From assembly GCA_015065455.1 (NCBI GenBank), contig SVQI01000001.1, forward strand, positions 61,090 to 125,089: 64,000 bases of DNA. Reading direction: 5' to 3'. How positions within the stretch are numbered: the stretch's first letter is position 1; each line of letters starts with the position of its first letter. The position numbers and the translations under genes were made by a program. The notes below the pieces were generated by a model. The model was not told the DNA's origin, did no database searches, and saw only the letters and a list, made by a program, of their open reading frames with translations. This document shows positions 1,795 to 63,304 of this stretch, in pieces. The DNA comes from Oscillospiraceae bacterium (GTDB lineage: Bacteria; Bacillota; Clostridia; Oscillospirales; CAG-272).

Positions 1795-3537
1795 ATGCTG
1801 ATACCGCCCGCAGTGATTGAAGAAATCAAATTCAGAAACGATATTGAATCGGTCGTTTCTGCCTACGTAAACTTAAAACCCGCAGGCTCAAACCTGATTG
1901 GACTTTGTCCTTTCCACAGCGAAAAAACTCCCTCTTTTACAGTTTTTAAAAATACGCAAACTTGTTACTGCTTCGGTTGCGGCTCGGGCGGAGACGTCGT
2001 TACTTTCATAATGAAAATGGAAAACCTCGACTACGTCAGCGCTCTTGAGTTTCTTGCAAAACGAGTAGGAATTACTATTCCCAGAAATTCAAACGACGAG
2101 CAGAGACAGGTTCGTTCAACAAGAATTCTTGAAATGAACAAGTCAGCGGCAAAATTTTTCCACAGCTGTCTTATATCGGAATCGGGCAAGGAAGCGCTTG
2201 AATATCTCAAAAAAAGAAAATTCTCCCCTGCCCTTATAAAGCATTTCGGCATTGGCTTCGCTCCGAACAGCTTCGACGCACTTTATAAACACCTTAAATC
2301 ACAAGGCTTTACCGACAAGGAAATGATTTCGGGCTTCCTCTGTAAAATGAGCCAAAAAACGAACAGGCCTTTTGATTTGTTCAGAAACAGAGTTATTATC
2401 CCCATTATAGATACCAAGGGCAACGTTATCGCTTTCGGCGGACGCGTACTTGACGACTCGCTCCCCAAATATTTGAACTCAAGTGATACGCCCGTTTTCA
2501 AAAAATCAAAAAATTTGTTTGCTCTTAACTACGCAAGGCGCGATTGCGCTGACAGAATTATTCTGTGTGAAGGATATATGGACGTTATCGCACTTCACGG
2601 TGCGGGATTTTCAAACGCTGTGGCAACCCTCGGCACAGCCATAACACCTGAGCAAGCGCGTATTATGGAAAAATACACAAAAAGCGTCGTTATTGCTTAC
2701 GACAGCGACGAAGCGGGACAAAGGGCGGCTGACAAGGCGTTTAAGCTTCTCGGTGAGGTAGGTCTTGACGTTAAGATACTGAAAATGACGGGAGCAAAGG
2801 ACCCCGACGAATATATCAAAAAATTTGGCCCCGAAAGATTTAAGAGATTGCTTGATGAAAGCAAGACGCATTTTGACTATAAATTTGAATCGATACTTTC
2901 AAAGCACGACGTATCGCAGACCCCCGAAAAGCTCAAGGCTTTGAGTCAGGTAACAGACGTTATTGCGAACGTTGCTTCGGCTGTCGAACGGGAAATTTAT
3001 ATTGCCAAGGTTTCCGAAAAGCTCGACGTTACAAAAGACAATCTGAAACACGACGTTGACAAAAAAATAAGACAGCAAATAAAAGAAAAACAAAAAAACG
3101 AAAGCAGAAAGATAATGCTTGAAAGCGCAGGCTTCGGCGACAGGATAAACCCCGATTATGCAAAGAACGTCAGGGCAGCTTCTGCTGAAGAATCCATTCT
3201 CAGCATTATTCTCACTTATCCCGAGCTTTTGAAAAAGGTTAAAGACGGAACGGCAGAGCTTTGTGCCGACGATTTCTTTACCGCTTTCGGCAAAAAGATA
3301 TTTGAAAAGAGCATTGAATTATACAGCGACGATATTTCTTTTGATTACGGTCTTCTCGGAAGTGAATTTACACCCGATGAGATGGGCAGAATTACCGCCA
3401 TTGTACTGAAAAGAAATAAGCTTTCTCAAAACGGTGAGCAAGAGCTTTACGACTGCATAAAAGTTCTGAAATCTGAAAAAGAAAAACAGACAGCGTCACT
3501 TACGGATATTATAAACGCAAGAAGAAACAAGCAATAA
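1795..3537 (+). CDS. dnaG: DNA primase
   Basis: Zinc-finger motif CPFHSEKTPSF...CFGCGSGGD and TOPRIM motif EGYMDV are present. AAAGGAGG lies upstream of the ATG. The gene precedes sigA, as in the conserved operon. Confidence 0.95.
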   Translation: MLIPPAVIEEIKFRNDIESVVSAYVNLKPAGSNLIGLCPFHSEKTPSFTVFKNTQTCYCFGCGSGGDVVTFIMKMENLDYVSALEFLAKRVGITIPRNSNDEQRQVRSTRILEMNKSAAKFFHSCLISESGKEALEYLKKRKFSPALIKHFGIGFAPNSFDALYKHLKSQGFTDKEMISGFLCKMSQKTNRPFDLFRNRVIIPIIDTKGNVIAFGGRVLDDSLPKYLNSSDTPVFKKSKNLFALNYARRDCADRIILCEGYMDVIALHGAGFSNAVATLGTAITPEQARIMEKYTKSVVIAYDSDEAGQRAADKAFKLLGEVGLDVKILKMTGAKDPDEYIKKFGPERFKRLLDESKTHFDYKFESILSKHDVSQTPEKLKALSQVTDVIANVASAVEREIYIAKVSEKLDVTKDNLKHDVDKKIRQQIKEKQKNESRKIMLESAGFGDRINPDYAKNVRAASAEESILSIILTYPELLKKVKDGTAELCADDFFTAFGKKIFEKSIELYSDDISFDYGLLGSEFTPDEMGRITAIVLKRNKLSQNGEQELYDCIKVLKSEKEKQTASLTDIINARRNKQ

Positions 3538-3581: not shown

Positions 3582-4877
3582 ATGGTTGAAGAAAAGAAAA
3601 AAGAAACCAAGAAAAAAGCTAAAGCTGTCGAACCGGAAAACGAAGCCGAGTTGGAAGCTATGGCTGACGCTCTCCTCGGTGAAACACCCAAGAAAAAGAG
3701 AGCTCCCAGAGCAAAAAAAGAAAAAACCGAAGAAGTTCCATCTTCCGAATTGTCTGCTGAAGAAAAGACAGACGAAAACGGAGAAAAAGGCGAAAAGAAA
3801 TTTAACCTCAAAGAGCTTGTTGAAAAGGCAAAGCAGAAGGGCACTATTTCAAACGCCGAAATTATGGAAGAGCTTGAAGACGTAGACTATGACCTCGAAC
3901 AGATAGAAAAGCTTTACGAGGCTCTTGAATCTGCAGGAGTTGAAGTTACAGGCTATCTTGATACGCCCGAGTTTGGAGAGATACAGTCGGAAATCGAACA
4001 GTACGAAAGTGCTGAGGATATGGAAAAGATGCTTTCTCAGGAAGGTCTTTCCATTGACGACCCCGTTAGAATGTATCTTAAAGAAATCGGTAAGGTTCCG
4101 CTTCTCAGCGCAGAACGCGAGCTCGAGCTTGCTGAGCTTATGGCAAACGGAAGCGAAGCTGCAAAACAGGAATTGGTTGAATCAAACCTTCGTCTTGTTG
4201 TAAGTATTGCAAAGCGTTACGTTGGAAAGGGTATGTTCTTCCTCGACCTTATCCAAGAAGGAAACCTCGGTCTTATGAAGGCTGTTGAAAAATTTGATTA
4301 CCGCAGAGGCTACAAGTTTTCAACATACGCTACGTGGTGGATAAGACAGGCTATCACACGTGCAATAGCAGACCAGGCGAGAACTATCAGAATTCCCGTT
4401 CATATGGTTGAAACCATTCACAAGGTAAGCAGAATTTCCCGTCAGCTTCTTCAGGAAAACGGACACGAAGCTACCCCTGAAGAAATCGCAAACGTTATGG
4501 GTATGAGCGCTGACAAGGTCCGCGAAATTATGAAGATAGCTCAGGACCCCGTTTCACTCGAAACACCTATCGGCGAGGAAGAGGATAGCCACCTCGGAGA
4601 TTTTATCCCCGACGATGCTACTCCGGCACCCGCAGACGCAGCTTCTTATACTCTTCTCCGCGAACAGCTTAACGAGGTTCTCAAGACACTCACTCCCAGA
4701 GAAGAAAGCGTTCTTAAACTCCGCTTTGGTCTTGAAGACGGAAGAACCCGGACGCTTGAAGAGGTTGGTAAGGAATTTAACATCACACGTGAACGTATCA
4801 GGCAGATTGAAGCCAAGGCTCTCCGCAAACTTCGTCATCCCAGCCGTTCAAAAAGACTCCGCGATTACCTCGAATAA
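3582..4877 (+). CDS. sigA: Primary sigma factor (sigma-70/SigA) with a K/E-rich N-terminal region
   Basis: Region 2 ([32 protein letters not shown]) and region 4.2 ([30 protein letters not shown]) are both recognisable. Confidence 0.95.
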
Positions 4878-5087: not shown

Positions 5088-6905
5088 ATGAAAAAGTCAT
5101 TGTTGGCATTATTTTTAGCACTCGTTATGTGTTTGTCCCTTTTCTGCACAGCTTGTAGCAGTTCTGGTGATGAAGAAAACCCCGACGTTCTTAATACCTC
5201 GGAGTCTGACATCGCACCTATGACTATTACGCTTTACGCTCCGACAAACAGTACGACAACAAAAGATCAGGTAAAGCTCGTTGAAGCTGAATTTAACAAA
5301 GTTACAGAAGCTAAATTCAACACTCACGTTGTTTTTAACCTTATTCCCGAAGATGACTACGAAGAGGTTATCTACTCCAGACTCGAAGGCCTTCGCAAGC
5401 AGGCTGCAGCAGAGCTTGAAGATGAAACAAAGAAACCTAACGTTACTCCTCTTTCCGACAATTCAAAATATCCCGGTATCAAAGACAACCAGCTTGATAT
5501 ATTCTTGGTAAACACCTTTGAAACATATTACGCTTTGGCTACGGGAACATACTATAAGCCCGAAAATAACGAATTACCCGAAGGCGCGCTTTATCCCCTC
5601 GATGAATCACTCAAAGAAAAAACTACTCTTCTTAACTCATATGCATACCCCTACTTGCTCCGCGCAGCAAGAATAGACGACCTTGATACAGGTACACAGG
5701 GTGTATTCGGTGTATTCAACAACACTATTTTTGGTGAATACCAGTACCTTTTGCTCAACAAAGAGCTTGTTGACAAGTACAACTACGACCCCGAAAATAT
5801 GTTTGACCTTTCTTCTATCTCTCTCTTCTTGAAGGAAGTTAAGCAGAACGAAGCAGGCGTAATTCCCTTCCTCGGAGACCTCGAAGCTCCCGTTGAATAC
5901 TTTAACGGTACAAAGTCACTTATCGGCGCTTACGTTGGAAAAGATTATACTTCTTCCGGCACAATTAACGCTACAAGCTACCTTCCCGCAGCAACCGCAC
6001 CCAACAACCTCTTTAACTCAGCTGAGTACAGAGTATGGATGAGAGAATACAACTCTCTCTTTAATGCAGGTTGTTTCGTTGCAAAGACAGATGCAAACGC
6101 TAACTCCAAGTTTGCAGCTACAGTAGTTACAGGCGACGTAACACTTTCTCCCACATACGCTGACGTATACGGAAACTACAAGGTTGACGATTACGGTTTC
6201 AAGTATATTACATACGAAGACGGTGTTGATTACTACGTATCAGTTTACAAAAGACCCGTTGCAAATGACGAAAACGTATTTAAGGCAGGCTATGTTGTAG
6301 GCGGTTACACAGAAGACGCTGACCGTTGTATGGAAATTATTCAGGCGCTCAACACAGACGCTAAGCTCGCTAACCTCTTCATGTACGGTGTTCAGGATGT
6401 TCACTATACACTTAACGTTGACACAAACGTTGTTCACAAGACAACAGATACATATTCGATGGATATCGAAACTGTTGGTAACATGTACTTGCTCAATCCT
6501 TCCGACGATATGGATGAGTATTGGAAATTTATGAGCGCTAACAAATGGCAGAACGCAAAGAATACAAACCTCGAAGCAGTTATGAGTCCCTTCCTTGCAT
6601 TCCACTATGACCCTGAGCAGCCCGCTGAAGACGAACTTGAAGCAGGCAAGGTTTACATCGATATGTCTTTTGAAGAAGTTATGGCTGAAATCGAAAAGCT
6701 TTCTCCTGCATTCTACGAAAAGGCACTTCACTACGTTGAAACTCCCGAACTTCCCTTTGCTGACTACATTAAGACAGTATATACAGAAGTTTCCGAAAAC
6801 GAATACGTAAGTTCTATCGGTAGCTTTGATAAGGGTATGTACAACATGCAGCTTATCTACAAAGAATGGTATCAGGCTCACTACAACGTAAAGCTTGCTG
6901 ACTAA
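5088..6905 (+). CDS. Large secreted lipoprotein, possibly a solute-binding-protein-like fold; function unknown
   Basis: The N-terminal signal peptide ends in ...SLFCTAC-SSSGD, a lipobox-like Cys. There is a strong RBS (AGGAGG), a consensus promoter upstream and a terminator downstream. No transporter genes are adjacent. Confidence 0.6.
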   Translation: MKKSLLALFLALVMCLSLFCTACSSSGDEENPDVLNTSESDIAPMTITLYAPTNSTTTKDQVKLVEAEFNKVTEAKFNTHVVFNLIPEDDYEEVIYSRLEGLRKQAAAELEDETKKPNVTPLSDNSKYPGIKDNQLDIFLVNTFETYYALATGTYYKPENNELPEGALYPLDESLKEKTTLLNSYAYPYLLRAARIDDLDTGTQGVFGVFNNTIFGEYQYLLLNKELVDKYNYDPENMFDLSSISLFLKEVKQNEAGVIPFLGDLEAPVEYFNGTKSLIGAYVGKDYTSSGTINATSYLPAATAPNNLFNSAEYRVWMREYNSLFNAGCFVAKTDANANSKFAATVVTGDVTLSPTYADVYGNYKVDDYGFKYITYEDGVDYYVSVYKRPVANDENVFKAGYVVGGYTEDADRCMEIIQALNTDAKLANLFMYGVQDVHYTLNVDTNVVHKTTDTYSMDIETVGNMYLLNPSDDMDEYWKFMSANKWQNAKNTNLEAVMSPFLAFHYDPEQPAEDELEAGKVYIDMSFEEVMAEIEKLSPAFYEKALHYVETPELPFADYIKTVYTEVSENEYVSSIGSFDKGMYNMQLIYKEWYQAHYNVKLAD

Positions 6906-6921
6906 TTTAAAATAATTACAA

Positions 6922-6955
6922 AGCTCCCCGAAAAAATCGGGGAGCTTATTTTTAT
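6922..6955 (+). terminator. Intrinsic terminator of the lipoprotein gene
   Basis: AGCTCCCCGA-aaaaa-TCGGGGAGCT followed by a T-rich run. Confidence 0.8.
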
Positions 6956-6957
6956 TA

Positions 6958-7203
6958 TAAAACGGGCGGACAAACAAATCCGCCCCTACATAGTTAGGCT
7001 TTATTGTCTTGCTGTGCGTGTTCGAGATCCTTCGCTGCGCCGCCACGATGTCATTCTTGAGCGAAGCGAAGAATCCCGTGGCGGCTTGCTCAAGGATGAC
7101 AAACGAACACGCAATATAACGCGCTCCCGCGTTTTTTTAAAAGAGGCACAGATTGTCAGCTTCTTCGCTCCCGAACTCTTGACACCGCAAAAACTTTAAA
7201 TAG
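6958..7203 (+). repeat. Mosaic intergenic repeat, locus F (modules R, K, degenerate T, truncated H)
   Basis: Near-identical to 23425-23700 over the R and K modules. Lies in the convergent spacer between the lipoprotein gene and rplS. Confidence 0.9.
7015..7113 (+). repeat. Module K copy (orientation a)
   Basis: TGCGTGTTCG ... CGAACACGCA terminal inverted repeats enclose interleaved repeats B-C-D-B'-C'-D'. The C/C' pair is CCGCCACG/CGTGGCGG. Confidence 0.85.
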
Positions 7204-7235
7204 ATAATCATTTATTATTTTTCTATATTATTTTC

Positions 7236-7279
7236 AAAAAATAAAAACCCGATGGAAGATTGTTTCTTCCGTCGGGTTT
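7236..7279 (-). terminator. Intrinsic terminator of rplS
   Basis: Minus strand: AACCCGACGGAAG-aaacaat-CTTCCATCGGGTT followed by TTTTTATTTTTT. Confidence 0.75.
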
Positions 7280-7289
7280 CTTGCTTTGC

Positions 7290-7634
7290 TTAGTCAATAA
7301 GCTCCTTAACCTTTGAATCCTTACCGATCTTGTTGCGGAGATAATAAAGCTTAGCACGTCTTACCTTACCTGATCTGATGATCTCTACCTTTTCTACGTT
7401 AGGTGAGTGAACAGGGAAAGTCTTTTCAACAGCTACACCGTAAGAAATGCGGCGTACTGTGAATGTTTCGGAAATACCGCCGCCGTGTCTTGCGATGATA
7501 GTTCCTTCGAAAATCTGAATTCTTTCTCTTGTACCTTCTTTAATCTTGTTGTGAACCTTTACAGTATCACCAATGTTAAGTACCGGTACTGTTTCTTTAA
7601 GCTGATCATTTGTTAAAGCCTTTACCAAATCCAT
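7290..7634 (-). CDS. rplS: 50S ribosomal protein L19
   Basis: The L19 sequence is recognisable (GDTVKVH..KEG.RERIQ.FEG..IARHGGG..ETFTVR). I moved the start to the ATG at 7634, which has AAGGAGG 8 nt upstream. The longer track ORF (to 7667) lacks an RBS. Confidence 0.95.
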
Positions 7635-19025: not shown

Positions 19026-19030
19026 AACAA

Positions 19031-19064
19031 GAGAGCGACACAAATTCGCTCTCTTTATTTTTTG
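19031..19064 (+). terminator. Intrinsic terminator after the lipid kinase gene
   Basis: GAGAGCGA-cacaaat-TCGCTCTC followed by TTTATTTTTT. Confidence 0.8.
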
Positions 19065-19404
19065 AGTAAGACGTGAGAATAGCCCCCTACAAATCTTAAG
19101 TTGCTAATAATTTAGACGACCTCATCCGTCGCGCCGCGTTATATAACAATATATATTTAAATATAATGGCGGCACGCCACCTTCTCCCACCGGAGAAGGC
19201 GCAAAATTAGTGCAAATTATAAGTAATAAAAAATATTTTATGAAATCATAAGACAATGATATAAAAACAAAAGACAAAGACTGTACTCTGTGCCTTCTCC
19301 AGTGGAAGAAGGTGGCACACCGCATACAGATTTTGTTTTTACAAATATAAAAAGCAGTGTGACGGATGAGTTCGTCTATCATACCAAATATTTCACTAAT
19401 TTTT

Positions 19405-19590
19405 ACCTCCATCTGACGAGGGAGGTGGCTCGGCAATAAACAGATATACAGTATAACTATTCTTTGTTGCCGAGACGGAGGGAGAGATATACGTTAATTA
19501 TCTGATTGCAATACTGTTTGTTTAAACCGTTCGTTTTTCTCTCCCTCAGTCAAAAACAAGTTTTTGACAGCTCCCTCCTCAGATGGAGCT
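19405..19590 (+). repeat. Module N, complete copy (nested hairpins, MITE-like 18-bp terminal inverted repeats)
   Basis: The outer arms are CTCCATCTGACGAGGGAG and CTCCCTCCTCAGATGGAG. They enclose three hairpins: CTCGGCAA/TTGCCGAG, GACGGAGGGAGAGA/TCTCTCCCTCAGTC and GTCAAAAAC-aa-GTTTTTGAC. Confidence 0.8.
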
Positions 19591-19708
19591 AAAAGATACA
19601 TTTTTAAAAAACCGAGGCGTCGAGGAAGGGGTTCCCCGAAACGCACGAAGTAAGTTTTGGGGGTTCTCGTGTGCGCCGTCCCCTACCAAATTAGGCAATA
19701 CCACTTTT

Positions 19709-19840
19709 GCAAACCAAGGGGGGTACCGAGGGAGGAACGCCCTCGGTCGTTTCAAGGGTTGGGTTCAAAGGGAGGGGAAATCGAAATCCCCGCCCTTTGT
19801 GCCTTCTTTGGTTACTTTCTTGGCACGCAAGAAAGTAACG
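19709..19840 (+). repeat. Module S copy 2
   Basis: Same architecture. The G-rich hairpin is AAAGGGAGGGGA-aatcgaaa-TCCCCGCCCTTT. Invariant hairpin at 19811-19839. Confidence 0.7.
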
Positions 19841-19933
19841 TAAAAAAGCAAAAGACAATATTATCTAATTAAAACGTTTGCTTTCTCTCCCTCAGTCAAC
19901 TTCGTTGACAGCGTCTACTGCGGTTCGGTCACG

Positions 19934-19981
19934 GCTCGAGAATGACAACGCGGCGGCGCAGCGAAGGATCCCGAACACGCA
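19934..19981 (-). repeat. Module K half copy (orientation b)
   Basis: GCTCGAGAATGACAACGCGGCGGCGCAGCGAAGGATCCCGAACACGCA equals the right half of the locus G copy. Confidence 0.8.
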
Positions 19982-20170
19982 ATTTAACGCGCTCTCGAAC
20001 CCTTGACAAAAGGGGCTTTTTAAAAAAAGCCCCTCTTGACTCCCCCAAAACTTTTAATAAAAATTTTTATATTATTATTTTAAAATAATATTTTAATTGC
20101 GCTTTTTGAAAAAAACTCCTTTGAAATCCGCAAAAACTTTAATAAGAATTTTAATTCTTATGCTTTGTGA

Positions 20171-23394: not shown

Positions 23395-23416
23395 GGAGCT
23401 AAAAAGCTCCTTTTTT
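23395..23416 (+). terminator. Intrinsic terminator after the HAD phosphatase gene
   Basis: GGAGCT-aaaa-AGCTCC followed by TTTTTT. Confidence 0.7.
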
Positions 23417-23424
23417 GTTGTTAA

Positions 23425-23700
23425 AAAACGGTCGGACAAACAAATCCGCCCCTACATAGTTAGGCTTTATTGTCTTACTGTGCGTGTTCTAGATCCTTCG
23501 CTGCGCCGCCACGATGTCATTCTTGAGCGAAGCGAAGAATCCCGTGGCGGCTTGCTCAAGGATGACAAACGAACACGCAATATAACACGCTCCCGCGTTT
23601 TTTAAAAGGAGTCCATACAATCAGGAGCTTCGCTCCCGAACCCATACAAAAGGAGCGCTTTTAAAAAAGCGCCCTCTTGACTCCCTCAAAACTTTAAAAA
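23425..23700 (+). repeat. Mosaic intergenic repeat, locus F2 (modules R, K, T-like, H)
   Basis: Aligns with 6958-7203 and 62596-62820. Confidence 0.9.
23481..23579 (+). repeat. Module K copy (orientation a)
   Basis: Near-identical to 7015-7113. Confidence 0.85.
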
Positions 23701-40239: not shown

Positions 40240-40248
40240 TAGAAATTT

Positions 40249-40281
40249 AATGCGCTGTTTTAACAAACAGCGCATTTTTTA
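40249..40281 (+). terminator. Intrinsic terminator after the MORN-repeat gene
   Basis: AATGCGCTGTTT-taac-AAACAGCGCATT running into TTTTTT. Confidence 0.75.
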
Positions 40282-40287
40282 TATTAT

Positions 40288-40960
40288 GTTGTCGGGTCGG
40301 AGGGAGAGATAATTGTTAATTATTTGATTGCAATATTGTTTGTTTAAACCGTTCATTTTTCTCTCCCTCAGTCAAAAACAAGTTTTTGACAGCTCCCTCG
40401 TCAGATGGAGCTAAAAGATACATTTTTAAAAAATCGGGACGTCGAGGAAGGGGTTCCCCGAAACGCACGAAGTAAGTTTTGAGGGTTCTCGTGTGCGCCG
40501 TCCCCTACCAAATTAGGCAATACCACTTTTGCAAACCAAGGGGGGTACCGAGGGAGGAACGCCCTCGGCCGTTTGAAAGGGAGGGGTCAAGGGGAGGGGA
40601 GGATCGGAACTCCCTCTCCCCTTTGTGCCTTCTTTGGTTACTTTCTTGGCACGCAAGAAAGTAACGTAAAAAAAGAAAAGACAATATTATCTGTTTAAAA
40701 CGTTTGCTTTTCTCTCCCTCAGTCAAAAACAAGTTTTTGACAGCGTCTACTGCGGTTCGGTCACGGCTCGGCTCTGACATCACACCGTGATGTCATTCAC
40801 TCCCTCGCCGCCGCTTCGCTACCTCGTCAGATGGAGCCGAGAATTACGCGCTTCGCGCGTAAAAAGACACAGAATGTCAGCTTCTTTGCTCCCAAACCCA
40901 CACAAGAGGAGAACTTTTAAAAAAGTGCCCTCTTGACTCCCTCAAAACTTTTAATAAAAA
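40288..40960 (+). repeat. Mosaic intergenic repeat, locus C (5'-truncated N, L, S, N-arm fragment, degenerate K, T, H)
   Basis: 40291-40666 aligns almost base for base with 19466-19840. Confidence 0.9.
40531..40666 (+). repeat. Module S copy 3
   Basis: Same architecture. Invariant hairpin at 40637-40665. Confidence 0.7.
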
Positions 40961-40983
40961 ATATTATATTATTTTTTTCAAAT

Positions 40984-41018
40984 CAAAAGACATTATTCAA
41001 AAGAATAATGTCTTTTTT
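40984..41018. terminator. Hairpin terminator at the 3' end of the XRE-membrane gene (stronger T-run on the + strand)
   Basis: AAGACATTATTC-aaaa-GAATAATGTCTT. TTTTTT follows on the + strand and TTTTGATTT on the - strand. Confidence 0.55.
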
Positions 41019-41022
41019 CTAT

Positions 41023-41631
41023 TTATTTTCTTTTTCCAAGCATAGACCACATAAATATTATCATTTGCCCCGGTATTCCAACCAGAAACAACATCTTTAT
41101 ATCTATGCCAAATACGTAAAACGTCAAATAAAATGCAAGAAGCGTTGACCACACCAATATAGATATAATCATGTAATTCGTTCTCTTGCTGAACCATATA
41201 GAATTAAACACAAGCCACACAATAGCAGAAACCGGTATCGCATACACAAAAGGAAGCATATGCGCGTACATAATCTTCGTCGTTAAATCAAGAATAACAA
41301 ATATTAAGGTTGCAACAAACCACACAAGCGCAACTGAAAGGCTCATTATATCTATCTGCTTGCGCTTTCTCACACTCTCATCTATAATCGGATTCTGTAC
41401 AGCTTTACTGTGCTTTTCCTCAACCAAATAGTCAAGCGTTACGTCAAACAGATCTGCAATATCTTTTAAAACAACAACGTCGGGTATTGATTCTGCCCTT
41501 TCCCATTTAGATACGGCTTTGTCGGAATAATTCAGTTTTTCGGCAACCTGAAGCTGTGTCATTCCCTTTGCCATGCGAAGCTCGGTTATGTTTTTTGCAA
41601 TTATACGCTTCATATCGTACATATCAACCAT
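41023..41631 (-). CDS. XRE-family HTH regulator fused to a multi-pass membrane domain
   Basis: N-terminal HTH_3 pattern (LRMAKGMTQLQVAEKLNYSDKAVSKWERAESIPD) followed by about 4-5 hydrophobic helices. Confidence 0.75.
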   Translation of the reverse strand: MVDMYDMKRIIAKNITELRMAKGMTQLQVAEKLNYSDKAVSKWERAESIPDVVVLKDIADLFDVTLDYLVEEKHSKAVQNPIIDESVRKRKQIDIMSLSVALVWFVATLIFVILDLTTKIMYAHMLPFVYAIPVSAIVWLVFNSIWFSKRTNYMIISILVWSTLLAFYLTFYVFGIDIKMLFLVGIPGQMIIFMWSMLGKRK

Positions 41632-45342: not shown

Positions 45343-45760
45343 GAGGGTACCGAGAAAAAAACATTTTAACCCCCAAAAAACAAAAAGTATAACCTAACTT
45401 TCCATCTTTTGCAAACCAAGGAGGGTTCCGAGGGAGGAACGCCCTCGGCCGTTTGAAAGGGAGGGGTCAAGGGGAGGGGAGGATCGGAACTCTCCTCCCC
45501 TTTGTGCCTTCTTTGGTTACTTTCTTGGCACGCAAGAAAGTAACGTAAAAAAGAAAAGACAATATTATCTGTTTGAAACGTTTGCTTTTCTCTCCCTCAG
45601 TCATTTTCTAACGAAAATGCCAGCTCCCTCGTCAGATGGAGCCGAGAATTACGCGCTTCGCGCGTAAAAAGGCACAGAATGTCAGGAGCTTCGCTCCCGA
45701 ACCCACACAAAAGGAGCGCTTTTAAAAAAGCGCCCTCTTGACTCCCCCAAAACTTTTAAA
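45343..45760 (+). repeat. Mosaic intergenic repeat, locus D (S with an alternative leader, N right arm, T, H)
   Basis: Starts 2 nt after the stop codon of the GT8-acyltransferase fusion, with no terminator in between. The S module is near-identical to locus C. Confidence 0.9.
45411..45545 (+). repeat. Module S copy 4
   Basis: The G-rich hairpin AAGGGGAGGGGAG-gatcggaa-CTCTCCTCCCCTT pairs fully with one G-T. Invariant hairpin at 45516-45544. Confidence 0.7.
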
Positions 45761-55694: not shown

Positions 55695-56117
55695 ATAAAA
55701 CAAAAAGTATAACCTAACCTTCCATCTTTCGCAAACGATGGGGGTGCAAAGGGGGTAATCCCCCTTTGTCGTTTGGTGGTTGGGGGTCGAGGGGGAGGAG
55801 GAATCGGAACCTCCGCCCCCTTGTGCCTTCTTTGGTTACTTTCTTGGCACGCAAGAAAGTAACATAAAAAAGAAAAAGACAATATTATTTAGCCAAACAA
55901 TACGTTTTAAAACAAAAAAACGCTCTCGCGTTTTTCAAAGGAGCACAAACAATCAGGAGCTTCGCTCCCGAACCCACACAAAAGGAGCACTTTTGAAAAA
56001 GTGCCCTCTTGACTCCCTCAAAACTTTTAATAAAAAATTATATATTATTTTTTAAGATAATATTTTAATTACGCTTTTTGAAAAAAGCTCCTTTGGAATC
56101 CGCAAAAACTTTTATTA
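55695..56117 (+). repeat. Mosaic intergenic repeat, locus E (S with an alternative leader, partial T, H, H')
   Basis: It shares the leader ACAAAAAGTATAACCTAAC(C/T)TTCCATCTT with locus D. It has the invariant hairpin at 55835-55863 and H modules at 55980-56117. Confidence 0.9.
55731..55864 (+). repeat. Module S copy 5 (most divergent)
   Basis: Hairpin 1 is replaced by the unrelated CAAAGGGGG-taat-CCCCCTTTG. The G-rich hairpin is GGGGGAGGAGG-aatcggaa-CCTCCGCCCCC. Invariant hairpin at 55835-55863. Confidence 0.7.
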
Positions 56118-56120
56118 AAA

Positions 56121-56153
56121 CAAAAAAAGACGGCTGTTTAAACCGTCTTTTTA
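56121..56153. terminator. Bidirectional terminator (serves ackA on the minus strand)
   Basis: AAGACGG-ctgtttaaa-CCGTCTT flanked by A7 upstream and T-rich sequence downstream. Confidence 0.7.
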
Positions 56154-60163: not shown

Positions 60164-60262
60164 TGCGTGTTCGATTGTCATCCTTGAGCAAGCCGCCGCG
60201 AGATTCTTCGCTACGCTCGAGAATGACAACGCGGCGGCGCAGCGAAGGATCCCGAACACGCA
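60164..60262 (-). repeat. Module K copy (orientation b, inverted relative to its downstream flank)
   Basis: The 79-nt interior equals the reverse complement of the interior of 62647-62745 at every position I checked by hand. Confidence 0.85.
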
Positions 60263-60343
60263 ATTTAACGCGCTCCCGAACCCACACCAAAGGTGCTTTT
60301 TGAAAAAAACTCCTTTGGAATCCGCAAAAACTTTTAATAAAAA
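60164..60343 (+). repeat. Mosaic intergenic repeat, locus G (K in inverted orientation, then an H/H' hybrid)
   Basis: 60164-60262 is the exact reverse complement of the K core at 62648-62744. The downstream flank AATTTAACGCGCTCCCGAACCC is in the same orientation as at locus H. Confidence 0.9.
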
Positions 60344-60459
60344 TTTTTTATATTATTTTTTCAAAATAATTATCTTTTGTTTTCCTGCGCCGACAGCGTT
60401 TACTCTTAAAAAATTCACATAAAATTTAACAAATTTTAGTGTATTTCTTCCAAAAGGTC

Positions 60460-61529: not shown

Positions 61530-62252
61530 ATGATTTACACCGAAGAATACAGAATCAACAGCCACGACTGCGACCTTAACGGCTTCGCAAGACCGTCAGC
61601 AATTCTTCGTTATATGCACGAAACCGCAAACTTACAGCTAAACGAATACGGACCGTCAAACGACGCTTTAAGAGCAGACGGCAAGGCTTTCATTCTTAGT
61701 AAAATCAACCTCAGTTTCTACTGCGCCCTGAAGGCGTTTGATAGAATAAGGGTGGAAACCTGGGCTTGTGAAAGCCGAGGCGTAAGCTTTTACCGCTGTA
61801 CGAGGGTGTTGAAGGACAACGACCTCGTAGCTGAAATGGTTGGCGTATTTGCTTTGGTTGACATAAATAACAAGAGCCTTTGCAGAGTTTCTGATATCAA
61901 ATTCGGCTTTGACGAAGAATCGACGATGCTCGAGCTTGACCTTCCCGCGAGATTCAGAATACCCGAAGGGGTTGACCTCGCGTTGCAGGGTGAATATACC
62001 GTCAGCTACAGCGATACCGACGAAAATATGCATATGAACAATACGAATTACCTCGATTTGTTCTGCAATTTTCTTCCCGATAATAAGAATAACCGAGTAA
62101 TTACGGCGGTTATTAATTACCAGTCCGAAGCTCCTATCGGAGAAACGGTGAAGATTTATCGCGGAGAAGACGACGACGTGTATTATTTCAGAACGGTTCG
62201 CCACGACGGCGCGGTTAATTCCGAGTCGCGCATTATGGTTGACAGAATTTAA
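61530..62252 (+). CDS. Acyl-ACP thioesterase family protein
   Basis: Double hot-dog size (240 aa) and the N-terminal Y.I.S.D.D..G......IL.Y..E.A pattern. Confidence 0.75.
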   Translation: MIYTEEYRINSHDCDLNGFARPSAILRYMHETANLQLNEYGPSNDALRADGKAFILSKINLSFYCALKAFDRIRVETWACESRGVSFYRCTRVLKDNDLVAEMVGVFALVDINNKSLCRVSDIKFGFDEESTMLELDLPARFRIPEGVDLALQGEYTVSYSDTDENMHMNNTNYLDLFCNFLPDNKNNRVITAVINYQSEAPIGETVKIYRGEDDDVYYFRTVRHDGAVNSESRIMVDRI

Positions 62253-62259
62253 AAATATG

Positions 62260-62296
62260 ATACCGTTGCATTTTTACGTGCAACGGTATTTTTTTG
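62260..62296 (+). terminator. Intrinsic terminator after the thioesterase gene
   Basis: ATACCGTTGCA-tttttac(g)-TGCAACGGTAT followed by TTTTTTT. Confidence 0.8.
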
Positions 62297-62383
62297 CATT
62301 ACGGGCGGATAGCAAAAACCACCCTACTCACAGATAAGGTCAAAGGATAGAAATTGAACAGAGACGAATTTGCACTAACTTTT

Positions 62384-62571
62384 ACCTCCATCTGACGAGG
62401 GAGGTGGCTCGGCAGTCAGCAAATATCAATTTTAATTTATCTTTGCTGCCGAGACGGAGGGAGAGATATGTGTTAGATTTTTGATTGCAATATTGTGTGT
62501 TTAAACCGTTCGTTCTTCTCTCCCTCAGTCATTTTCTAACAAAAATGCCAGCTCCCTCGTCAGATGGAGCT
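62384..62571 (+). repeat. Module N, complete copy
   Basis: Same outer arms (CTCCATCTGACGAGGGAG / CTCCCTCGTCAGATGGAG). The first hairpin is compensated to CTCGGCAG/CTGCCGAG. The third hairpin is replaced by CATTTTC-taac-(A)AAAATG. Confidence 0.8.
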
Positions 62572-62646
62572 AAAAAGTTAGATTATTTCGGGAAAACGGA
62601 CGTATAGCAAAAACGCCCCTACAATTTTAGGGTTTATTGTCTTAAC

Positions 62647-62745
62647 CGCGTGTTCGGGATCCTTCGCTGCGCCGCCGCGTTGTCATTCTCGAGCGTAGCG
62701 AAGAATCTCGCGGCGGCTTGCTCAAGGATGACAATCGAACACGCA
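62647..62745 (+). repeat. Module K copy (orientation a)
   Basis: Same layout. The C/C' pair is CCGCCGCG/CGCGGCGG, a compensated change relative to locus F. Confidence 0.85.
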
Positions 62746-62962
62746 ATTTAACGCGCTCCCGAACCCACACAAGAGGTGCACTTTTGAAAAAGTGCCCTCT
62801 TGACTCCCTCAAAACTTTTAATAAAAATTTTTATATTATTTTAATTGCGCTTTTGAAAAAAGCTCCTTTGGAATCCGCAAAAACTTTAAATAGAAAAATA
62901 TCTTTACATTTTTTTATTAGTATGTTATACTAAAATGAGAGATAATATATATAAAAAAAGGG

Positions 62963-63304
62963 GTGTTACGTGTGGAAAATAACGTTTGCGACAACAAGGA
63001 TATTGCTTTTATTTGCGACGAAATGAAAAGACTTTTTGACATCGAATTGCTCGTTGTTTTCGGCATTAAACGCAGAGAAAAAGACAATGCAGTTACCGAC
63101 CTCGATATTTGCGTCGTTTGCGAACACGATAACAAAAACGCGTGGATTAAAAAAGCTTACCTCGAAATTGACAGCGATATTCCTTTTGATATTTCTCTGT
63201 ACACACCGTCGGAGTGGAACAGCTTAATTGAAAAACCCGAGAGCTTCGCCTCCCGAATTTTGCGAAAGGGGTGTGTAGTTTATGGCAAGACGCAAAACCA
63301 GTGA
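62963..63304 (+). CDS. Minimal nucleotidyltransferase (MNT) domain protein, putative antitoxin partner
   Basis: Pol-beta NTase pattern LLVVFGIKRREKDNAVTDLDICVV. GTG start at 62963, or at 62972 with an AAGGGG RBS 9 nt upstream. Confidence 0.7.
   Translation: MLRVENNVCDNKDIAFICDEMKRLFDIELLVVFGIKRREKDNAVTDLDICVVCEHDNKNAWIKKAYLEIDSDIPFDISLYTPSEWNSLIEKPESFASRILRKGCVVYGKTQNQ

Follow-up and report, generated by a model that had tools for sequence, protein, structure and literature searches.

A dispersed, hairpin-ended DNA repeat of gut Clostridia whose end modules also bracket DUF559 nuclease genes

Positions 19,405-19,840 of the 64,000-nt stretch of Oscillospiraceae DNA analysed here (contig SVQI01000001.1 of assembly GCA_015065455.1; hereafter the window) hold a run of about 436 nt crowded with hairpins, and the questions it raises are whether this run is one element and whether it works as RNA or as DNA. 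An initial annotation had proposed that three modules, N, L and S, form a composite that is present twice in the window. We found instead that N-L-S is a local mosaic of independent repeat families rather than a unit, and that N belongs to a core family that is widespread and apparently undescribed, is conserved in structure throughout, and shares its ends with genes of the DUF559 nuclease family. On balance, and with some reserve, we are inclined to read N as a dispersed DNA repeat, a version of DUF559 cassettes that lacks the open reading frame (ORF), resembles REPINs and miniature inverted-repeat transposable elements (MITEs), has ends served by the nuclease and lies here within a local mosaic.

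The 18-nt terminal inverted repeats that had been ascribed to N were readily recovered. The 18-mer CTCCATCTGACGAGGGAG or its reverse complement occurs seven times in the window with at most three mismatches, against 0.02 expected by chance (19407-19424(+), 19571-19588(-), 40393-40410(-), 40819-40836(-), 45624-45641(-), 62386-62403(+) and 62552-62569(-)), and the inverted repeats extend to about 30 nt. Stretches with the exact 18-mer number more than 111 and come from some 40 or more assemblies, nearly all of them metagenome-assembled genomes (MAGs) of Clostridia from animal and human guts; only three viral contigs have it, and the idea of a phage origin was set aside. A literature search found no paper on this 18-mer, nor on DUF559 tied to such ends. 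It always lies inside an end motif of about 55 nt, which reads (C/G)CTCCATCTGACGAGGGAG(G/C), TG, a variable hairpin, GAC and (G/T)GAGGGAGAGA. This motif comes in two flavours, one being N's left end (End A) and the other its right end in reverse complement (End B), so that the first and third internal hairpins of N are the same feature in two inverted ends. This had escaped the initial annotation, as had the facts that the 18-mer is itself a hairpin and that the 186-nt domain which the repeats were thought to close folds equally well on either strand. Two end modules in inverted orientation, with a short variable interior between them, make up the N doublet. In each, a pyrimidine block and a purine block pair across a short loop as a hairpin of 7-8 bp; a connector hairpin of no fixed sequence comes next, and after it purine block 2, a mirror of the first. 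The parts of the first copy, whose homology with the third copy begins at 19391 and 62370, respectively, according to a repeat finder, are as follows.

19393-19405, + strand: outer extension of the left inverted repeat (CACTAATTTTTA), common to the copy at 62372-62385
19406-19589: N copy 1 overall
19406-19487, + strand: End A
19406-19425: End A terminal hairpin CCTCCATCTGACGAGGGAGG (pyrimidine block, loop, purine block 1), with TGG next
19429-19474: End A connector hairpin CTCGGCAA...TTGCCGAG, with AC next
19477-19486: End A purine block 2, GGAGGGAGAG, the mirror of block 1
19488-19537, + strand: variable interior, the site of the DUF559 ORF in gene-bearing relatives
19538-19589, + strand: End B, the inverted counterpart of End A (G..C type), in the order TCTCTCCCTCA, connector hairpin GTCAAAAACAAGTTTTTGAC (19549-19568), AG, terminal hairpin GCTCCCTCCTCAGATGGAGC (19570-19589)

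Fifty complete doublets were found, mostly 108-190 nt long, and 43 of 48 pair one A-type with one B-type end. More than 20 near-uniform doublets of about 150 nt in one rabbit-gut MAG point to an ORF-less unit having been amplified. N-type doublets arrayed in one orientation, with a spacing of about 250-290 nt, were seen at four loci of the MAG Lapin-032 bin13 (L012, L059, L064 and L077), and one viral contig (L124) carries five N-type copies on one strand. The arrayed doublets are each preceded by a GCGCGC..GCGCGC mini-hairpin, and some pair two subtypes, TCTGACGA type with TTGCCTAAA type. The arrays of about 250 nt in one MAG prompted us to consider integron attC-like sites, which we rejected after finding by eye no R''/R' cores of the GTTRRRY type at the ends.

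The structural conservation of these ends bears out an argument of the initial annotation, that replacing one hairpin by an unrelated one at a fixed position implies a structural requirement. In the window, TCTCTCCCTCAGTC occurs at 19538, 19884, 40360, 40711, 45589 and 62517 and its near-complement GACGGAGGGAGAGA at 19474, 40296 and 62453, nine occurrences against 0.18 expected. After the conserved TCTCTCCCTCA there follows GTCAAAAACAAGTTTTTGAC (at 19549, 40371 and 40722), GTCAACTTCGTTGAC (at 19895) or CATTTTC-TAAC-GAAAATG (at 45601 and 62530, the latter with one C.A mismatch), just as had been described, and the compensated change reported for the first hairpin is likewise present, CTCGGCAA/TTGCCGAG at 19429-19436 and 19467-19474 being replaced by CTCGGCAG/CTGCCGAG in the copy at 62386. 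Among 138 unique ends from many genomes the connector hairpin is there in essentially every one, built from dozens of stems whose pairs are nearly all Watson-Crick (of about 960, 11 are G-U), so the hairpin variants are part of the element, kept by structure and not by sequence, rather than unrelated flanking DNA. If the connector need only be a compact stem-loop, this would account for the swapping of hairpins.

Covariation, which the initial annotation had proposed to test statistically, was evident in the terminal hairpin also. Within the terminal 20-mer, both sides change together in five of seven pairs (38 variants), and 30 double-change cells were counted against 12 +/- 2.4 in shuffles, none of 500 of which reached that number, and against 2-5 in slid controls; for the terminal and connector hairpins together the count was 75 against 20 +/- 3 (0/500; slid controls 10-26), all these counts being drawn from related sequences and hence not from independent events. 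The pair at positions 1 and 20 switches from C-G in End A to G-C in End B, which fits the local hairpin and does not fit a long-range 18-bp stem between the ends, and in elements with two end subtypes the long-range stem is mismatched and both local hairpins are intact. In DUF559-flanking ends with non-symmetric cores, purine block 2 matched block 1 better as a mirror in 30 cases and better directly in nine. One position changes in all three blocks together, from T-A-A to C-G-G.

DUF559 is a large family of proteins to which, as far as we know, no role has been assigned. Its link to the N ends emerged at three loci retrieved through the 18-mer, where an ORF starting MKEYNK... directly follows the left end and matches Pfam DUF559 with an E-value of 1e-27. 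Each of the seven DUF559 genes in the 18-mer loci lies directly against such ends, three of them being enclosed exactly, in elements of 438-480 nt. Since that sample had been chosen by its ends, the association was retested starting from the protein: peptide patterns taken from five DUF559 proteins served to scan metagenome contigs. The End A 18-mer lies at -47 to -68 in about 14 of the 17 genes with at least 70% identity, and GAGGGAGAG at -11/-12, the ribosome-binding position; in the same genes, CTCTCCCTC lies 0 to +4 from the last aligned codon, with the End B 18-mer at +27 to +31. The polarity matches that of N: upstream there is usually End A (C..G type), downstream End B (G..C type). The ORF, which encodes a protein of about 115 amino acids, abuts or overlaps the complementary block at its end. 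More distant homologues (50-67% identity) have no N-type motif, and analogous ends of another kind, which match each other across the gene, stand in its place: CCTCCCTTGTGTAAAGGGAGG (L153, both ends), GCCCCCTTGCCTAAAGGGGGC (L163), CCTCCCCTTGATTCAAACAAGGGGAGG (L174/175) and CCTTCCCCTTGAGGGGAAGG (L193). The inverted repeat between upstream and downstream flanks exceeded the 95th percentile of shuffles in 43 of the 69 loci with enough flank. The protein matches PDB 3HRL, an 'endonuclease-like protein' (E = 1.4e-15), and is related to E. coli YcjD, which surveys of PD-(D/E)xK enzymes have tied to Vsr (PMC1189080).

As for the composite, the sequence features listed in the initial annotation are all present, with coordinates off by a few bases, and the two collinear copies are real: 19392-19915 and 40270-40745 align and are nearly identical from about 19458 and 40280 on, with 300 nt paired at 93% identity by the repeat finder. 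The second copy, which immediately follows the upstream gene's terminator, is without the initial ~66 nt of N. Nevertheless, the modules proved separable, which the annotation itself had named as grounds for giving up the composite. In a sister-strain contig (L115), N is 100% and the C2-S unit (S with the module C2 that precedes it) 97-100% identical, and L is replaced by a different REP-like piece. Within the window N occurs at 62384 without L-S, and C2-S occurs without N at 382, 45381 and 55700. The nearest copies of N, L and C2-S come from the MAG 'Oscillospiraceae bacterium SIG632'; there C2-S is kept together and L is found at the opposite side of an N end. L-like copies in still other arrangements were found at loci L027, L056, L018, L085, L097 and L107. 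The right half of another N-type element always stands 3' of S, truncated (19884), interrupted (40740-40817) or complete (45589-45641). Judged from the sequences, one local mosaic present in two copies is the best reading of the two composites; in it N, a REP-like L, a Clostridiales-2-like C2-S and extra N right halves would have accumulated 3' of terminators, in blocks that vary between strains. The remaining parts are these.

19597-19710, + strand: module L, multi-hairpin and REP-like, ending ..CGTCCCCTACC; its reverse complement starts GTAGGGGACGG
19711-19798, + strand: module C2, hairpin ACCGAGGG..CCCTCGGT and hairpin GGGAGGGGA..TCCCCGCCC
19799-19839, + strand: module S, GTGCC..GGCAC overlapping an 11-bp hairpin GTTACTTTCTT/AAGAAAGTAAC, always after C2 in five window copies
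19843-19912, + strand: truncated extra N right half, with an interior-like stretch, TCTCTCCCTCA (19884-19894), GTCAACTTCGTTGAC (19895-19909) and AGC, and no terminal hairpin
40291-40412, + strand: N copy 2, 5'-truncated, starting within End A (GGAGGGAGAG at ~40299-40308), with End B complete (18-mer 40393-40410)
40418-40662, + strand: second copy of L, C2 and S, collinear with 19597-19839 (C2 match 40533-40597)
40711-40836, + strand: extra N right half, its End B split by a 78-nt insert (40740-40817) between CAGC and TACCTCGTCAGATGGAG
45560-45643, + strand: solo N right half after a C2-S copy, with End B complete (18-mer 45624-45641)
62372-62583, + strand: N copy 3, complete, 86% identical to copy 1 (18-mers 62386-62403 and 62552-62569)
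19711-19798, 40533-40620, 45414-45500, 55732-55820 and ~400-490, all + strand: the five copies of the C2-S unit, with S after each

N copy 3 is followed by a REP-like piece and a long palindrome in place of L-C2-S. Several N ends share one insertion point, between the terminal and connector hairpins (..GAGGGAGC^TGTC..), which is occupied by an element of about 60-78 nt: in the window at 40740-40817, and elsewhere at L094 ~7255-7320 and 6440-6500, L115 4775-4852, L018 6958-7018 and L032 6526-6604. In strain contig L121, End B is uninterrupted at the site matching the window insert. From its sequence context, this insert looks like a second repeat family that targets N ends.

Module C2 gave weak matches to the Rfam family RF02937, Clostridiales-2 RNA (22-28 bits, against a gathering score of 58.6), four copies matching and all on the + strand. 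The two share the sequence GGGGGU-hairpin-CGU..AAGG..AAGGGA and one hairpin, in four window copies on the same strand; they differ in that the model's internal 25-nt segment is absent from C2, the scores fall far below gathering, and C2 behaves in the window as a dispersed repeat always followed by S, unlike Clostridiales-2 RNA. Given that C2-S is dispersed five times with such weak matches, the Clostridiales-2 candidate small RNA family may include, or derive from, a dispersed repeat.

Whether N works as RNA or as DNA can be weighed from its fold. As the initial annotation had supposed, N is predicted to form a domain with internal hairpins, a four-way junction at -78.8 kcal/mol with z = -9.4. 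That strong fold, the covariation of its hairpins and the weak resemblance of the adjoining C2 to Clostridiales-2 RNA are what one would expect of a structured non-coding RNA of about 185 nt, present in several copies and perhaps transcribed with L and S as one unit. Yet the opposite strand folds just as well (-78.0 kcal/mol), and a search of Rfam gave no match in the window at gathering thresholds and no meaningful match to N even at E-values up to 10. The connector loops, read from the outer to the inner side, are of a G..A type in 46 of 69 cases in End A and 24 of 40 in End B, with none and one of the complementary T..C type, respectively; because they read G..A inward at both ends, a single transcript would have G..A loops at End A and U..C loops at End B. 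G-U pairs are nearly absent, no good + strand promoter lies upstream, and N is placed after the intrinsic terminators of the upstream genes (19029-19063, computed; 40250-40282 and 62258-62296, read from the sequence). Many halves are truncated or solo, elements with differing end subtypes keep their local hairpins and not the long-range 18-bp stem, and purine-motif triplexes do not form in RNA (PMC4666352). Equal folding of both strands, inward G..A loops, rarity of G-U, position after terminators and lack of an Rfam match together favour an element that acts at the DNA level, and we regard a non-coding RNA as very improbable. Hardly less improbable is that the ends exert RNA-level control over DUF559 messenger RNA, through sequestration of the ribosome-binding site or pairing of its 5' and 3' parts, with N and the solo ends as functionless decayed cassettes. 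The place of GAGGGAGAG at -11/-12 from the start codon is that expected of a Shine-Dalgarno sequence, an upstream CCUCC block or the complementary downstream block could mask it, and the ORF end abuts or overlaps that complementary block. However, uniform ORF-less copies of about 150 nt amplified in one genome are unlike independent decay, the ORF-less copies keep their hairpins and purine blocks and hold no ORF remnant, and the loop bias is symmetric at both ends with G-U almost absent. A hammerhead ribozyme was considered for the suggestive CUGACGAG box and rejected, there being no GAAA element, no suitable stem II and no Rfam match, and a test of asymmetry between G-T and A-C pairs was dropped since non-Watson-Crick pairs were too few.

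The main alternative at the DNA level is that the DUF559 gene is the invader, a free-standing homing-endonuclease gene that cuts the interiors of passive palindromic or triplex-prone doublets and copies itself in. The ORF always sits at the same place, in the loop between GGAGGGAGAG and CTCTCCCTC, gene-bearing copies are far outnumbered by ORF-less ones, and a passage in PMC9403480 that cites Taylor et al. 2011 puts DUF559 in the EDxHD family, called there a homing-endonuclease family. We nevertheless consider homing unlikely, as it leaves unexplained the spread of ORF-less doublets to dozens of sites and genomes, whose interiors are not conserved between genomes and would make poor homing sites; moreover, each DUF559 clade has its own matched end type, which recognition of the ends fits at least as well as recognition of the interior. 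If N is an ORF-less relative of the DUF559 cassettes, as we prefer to think, its ends would fold when single-stranded, for example at replication forks, and might form triplexes; a cognate DUF559 nuclease would then recognise and nick the folded ends, nicking would promote the copying, excision or recombination of any unit with one A-type and one B-type end, and ORF-less doublets would be served by the nuclease in trans.

Several observations weigh against this reading. In the strain contigs and flanks we found no insertion or excision event, no empty site and no target-site duplication, so that mobility is at most a hypothesis; the flanks of the 50 complete copies show no visible direct repeat, in agreement with the initial annotation, and often show short inverted repeats instead. 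The orientation of N relative to neighbouring genes is only weakly biased. Besides the relatedness of the sequences behind the covariation counts, the three-way change from T-A-A to C-G-G may be a single event within one lineage. The 64-kb window holds no DUF559 gene, and no recognisable remnant of its ORF was found inside the ORF-less elements, for which reason a deletion series from DUF559 cassette to N was also rejected. DUF559 is, to our knowledge, not a known transposase. End pairs also enclose unrelated ORFs, zeta-toxin-like (228 amino acids), of 85 amino acids and SpoIIP-like (418 amino acids), so that N-type ends either bracket cargo beyond DUF559 or are solo ends of separate elements:

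L094 348-1393: end pair with the zeta-toxin-like ORF
L094 7244-7754: end pair with another gene
L098 5696-7218: end pair with the SpoIIP-like ORF

A full-length insertion sequence with the same ends was sought among these and rejected, the long pairs L094 348-1393 and L098 5696-7218 holding no transposase ORF. Contigs with an identical flanking protein have different neighbouring genes beyond the repeat block (L119, L120 and L121 compared with window 40240-41030; L117 compared with 62250-62970), and different contigs differ in their neighbours 3' of the gene at 41023-41631; these are either real strain rearrangements or assembly chimeras at repeats longer than the k-mer. Finally, Holder et al. 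(PMC4666352) report no in vivo evidence of triplexes for TM_ECO, the E. coli repeat compared with N below.

The setting of the mosaic is the chromosome of an uncultured bacterium, the window having a G+C content of about 42% and encoding DnaG (1795-3537) and a sigma-70 factor (3582-4877). All N copies in the window are intergenic, and mosaic repeats fill nine intergenic regions, each 3' of + strand genes:

342-590, 6946-7222, 19405-20167, 23412-23698, 40291-40978, 45381-45759, 55700-56139, 60215-60370 and 62370-62914

Two additional dispersed repeat families, with similar pieces in other MAGs, are REP-like hairpins ending ..CGCCCCTAC, GTAG-headed on the other strand (6960-6995, 23425-23460, 62312-62335 and 62596-62630), and palindromes of about 100 nt with GTCATTCTTGAGCGAAGCGAAGAATC (7015-7112, 23481-23578, 60165-60260 and 62648-62744). 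A 53-nt module, a G+C-rich hairpin followed by CTCTTGACTCCCNCAAAACTTTTAAT, has 11 + strand copies, resembles a minus-direction terminator with a -35-like TTGACT, and mostly closes each repeat block:

342-394, 20006-20058, 23646-23698, 40902-40954, 45707-45759, 55978-56030 and 62769-62821, plus four weaker copies, + strand: the 53-nt module

Just upstream of N copy 1, 19167-19200 (-) and 19293-19325 (+) are two back-to-back end-like modules of another subtype, CCTTCTCC-GGTG-GGAGAAGG-TG-hairpin, which resemble the ends flanking the DUF559 gene in locus L197 (CCTTCTCCATAGGAGAAGG). A weak Rfam match to WsnRNA46 at 19151-19341 merely reflects their inverted repeat and was set aside.

Among known repeat systems, REPs and REPINs are short palindromes repeated between genes, which often come as inverted doublets forming long hairpins and which cluster into mosaics called BIMEs, and a small gene for the RAYT (Y1 HUH) transposase is flanked by inverted repeats. 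The N family shares with them the palindromic doublets, the small nuclease gene within inverted repeats and the mosaic clustering. It differs in that the flanked gene is a Vsr-like PD-(D/E)xK DUF559 rather than a Y1 HUH transposase, and in that the N ends begin with (C/G)CTCC, have no GTAG (or CGTC) head and are composite, with two hairpins and purine blocks; the GTAG-headed hairpins of the window belong to other modules (L, 6960-6995 and 62596-62630). MITEs such as Correia/NEMIS and RUP are short, non-coding and multi-copy with terminal inverted repeats, and the likeness to them drawn by the initial annotation is reasonable: N is under 300 bp, non-coding and multi-copy, has terminal inverted repeats, and has longer relatives with the same ends that carry a gene (DUF559). 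In contrast to MITEs, no target-site duplication was seen for N, its candidate partner gene is not a known transposase, and its ends are conserved as folds, not merely as protein-binding sequence.

The repeats of E. coli and other Proteobacteria known as BoxC, PIT (potential intrastrand triplex) or TM_ECO offer a further comparison (Holder et al. 2015, PMC4666352, and earlier work by Hoyne and Maher cited there). TM_ECO comprises pyrimidine, purine and mirror purine blocks in the pattern CCCTCNCCC N3-6 GGGNGAGGG N3 GGGNGAGGG and folds in vitro into an intrastrand triplex of the purine motif; its copies, 23 in MG1655, are intergenic, form inverted pairs that always join A and B, and mark loci that are more rearranged between strains (PMC4666352). 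Known since the 1990s, these repeats have no function, origin or means of spread assigned to them and were stated not to be associated with mobile elements (PMC4666352). At the DUF559 gene ycjD of E. coli K-12 (locus L205, NC_000913.3 1351030-1351850) we observed upstream a hairpin with a 16-bp stem, CACCTCATTCTGACAA..TTGTCAGAATGAGGTG, that resembles the N 18-mer, and the gene's 3' end overlaps CCCTCTCCC and is followed by a duplicated 3' fragment and a TM_ECO copy, the latter about 170 nt downstream. This piece, of 86 nt, has a median of 15 places per genome. In a sample of 60 genomes spread over the ranking, TM-like places number 11-25 in the 37 that have ycjD and 1-16 in the 23 that lack it; B2 strains (UTI89, Nissle and ST131) have 1-3, and O55:H7-like strains about 12. 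The gene is present in phylogroups A, B1 and C, with eefRABCD in its place elsewhere (PMC12817139), and our counts agree with that distribution, in a relation that is partial and confounded by phylogeny. We put forward only tentatively, as an idea with the likelihood still against it, that DUF559 proteins (YcjD-like, Vsr-fold) are the missing cognate enzymes of BoxC/PIT/TM repeats across bacteria, in an arrangement like that of RAYTs and REPINs of which N doublets and ycjD with BoxC would be two instances.

The N family thus joins a repeat kind that has gone unexplained to a protein family of unknown role, in a RAYT/REPIN-like arrangement, and the systematic link between DUF559 genes and triplex-type hairpin ends makes the roles of both testable by simple biochemistry and comparative genomics. 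If functional, it would be a second nuclease-plus-miniature-repeat system beside RAYT/REPIN, shaping intergenic regions and rearrangements in abundant gut bacteria. For annotation, many spurious ORFs of small size (..PPSDEGG.., ..APSSEGA..) and the repeat-rich breakpoints of Clostridia MAGs are explained by N ends.

Set beside BoxC/PIT/TM, N has the same three consecutive blocks (in copy 1, at 19406-19486, CCTCCATC, loop TGAC, GAGGGAGG, connector hairpin and GGAGGGAG) and the same inverted pairing of A with B, in 43 of 48 N-type doublets and always in TM_ECO. Both are intergenic and multi-copy, at loci that vary between strains, and have no known function. On the other hand, the N blocks are of about 8 nt and of other sequence, the host is Clostridia, and the usual form is a doublet of 110-190 nt; N-type ends bracket a nuclease gene, whereas no associated gene is reported for BoxC/PIT/TM (PMC4666352). 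Since N does not fit the TM_ECO pattern, and its second loop is a hairpin of 15-45 nt where TM_ECO has 3 nt, we regard N as a variant of that kind of repeat and not as a member of it.

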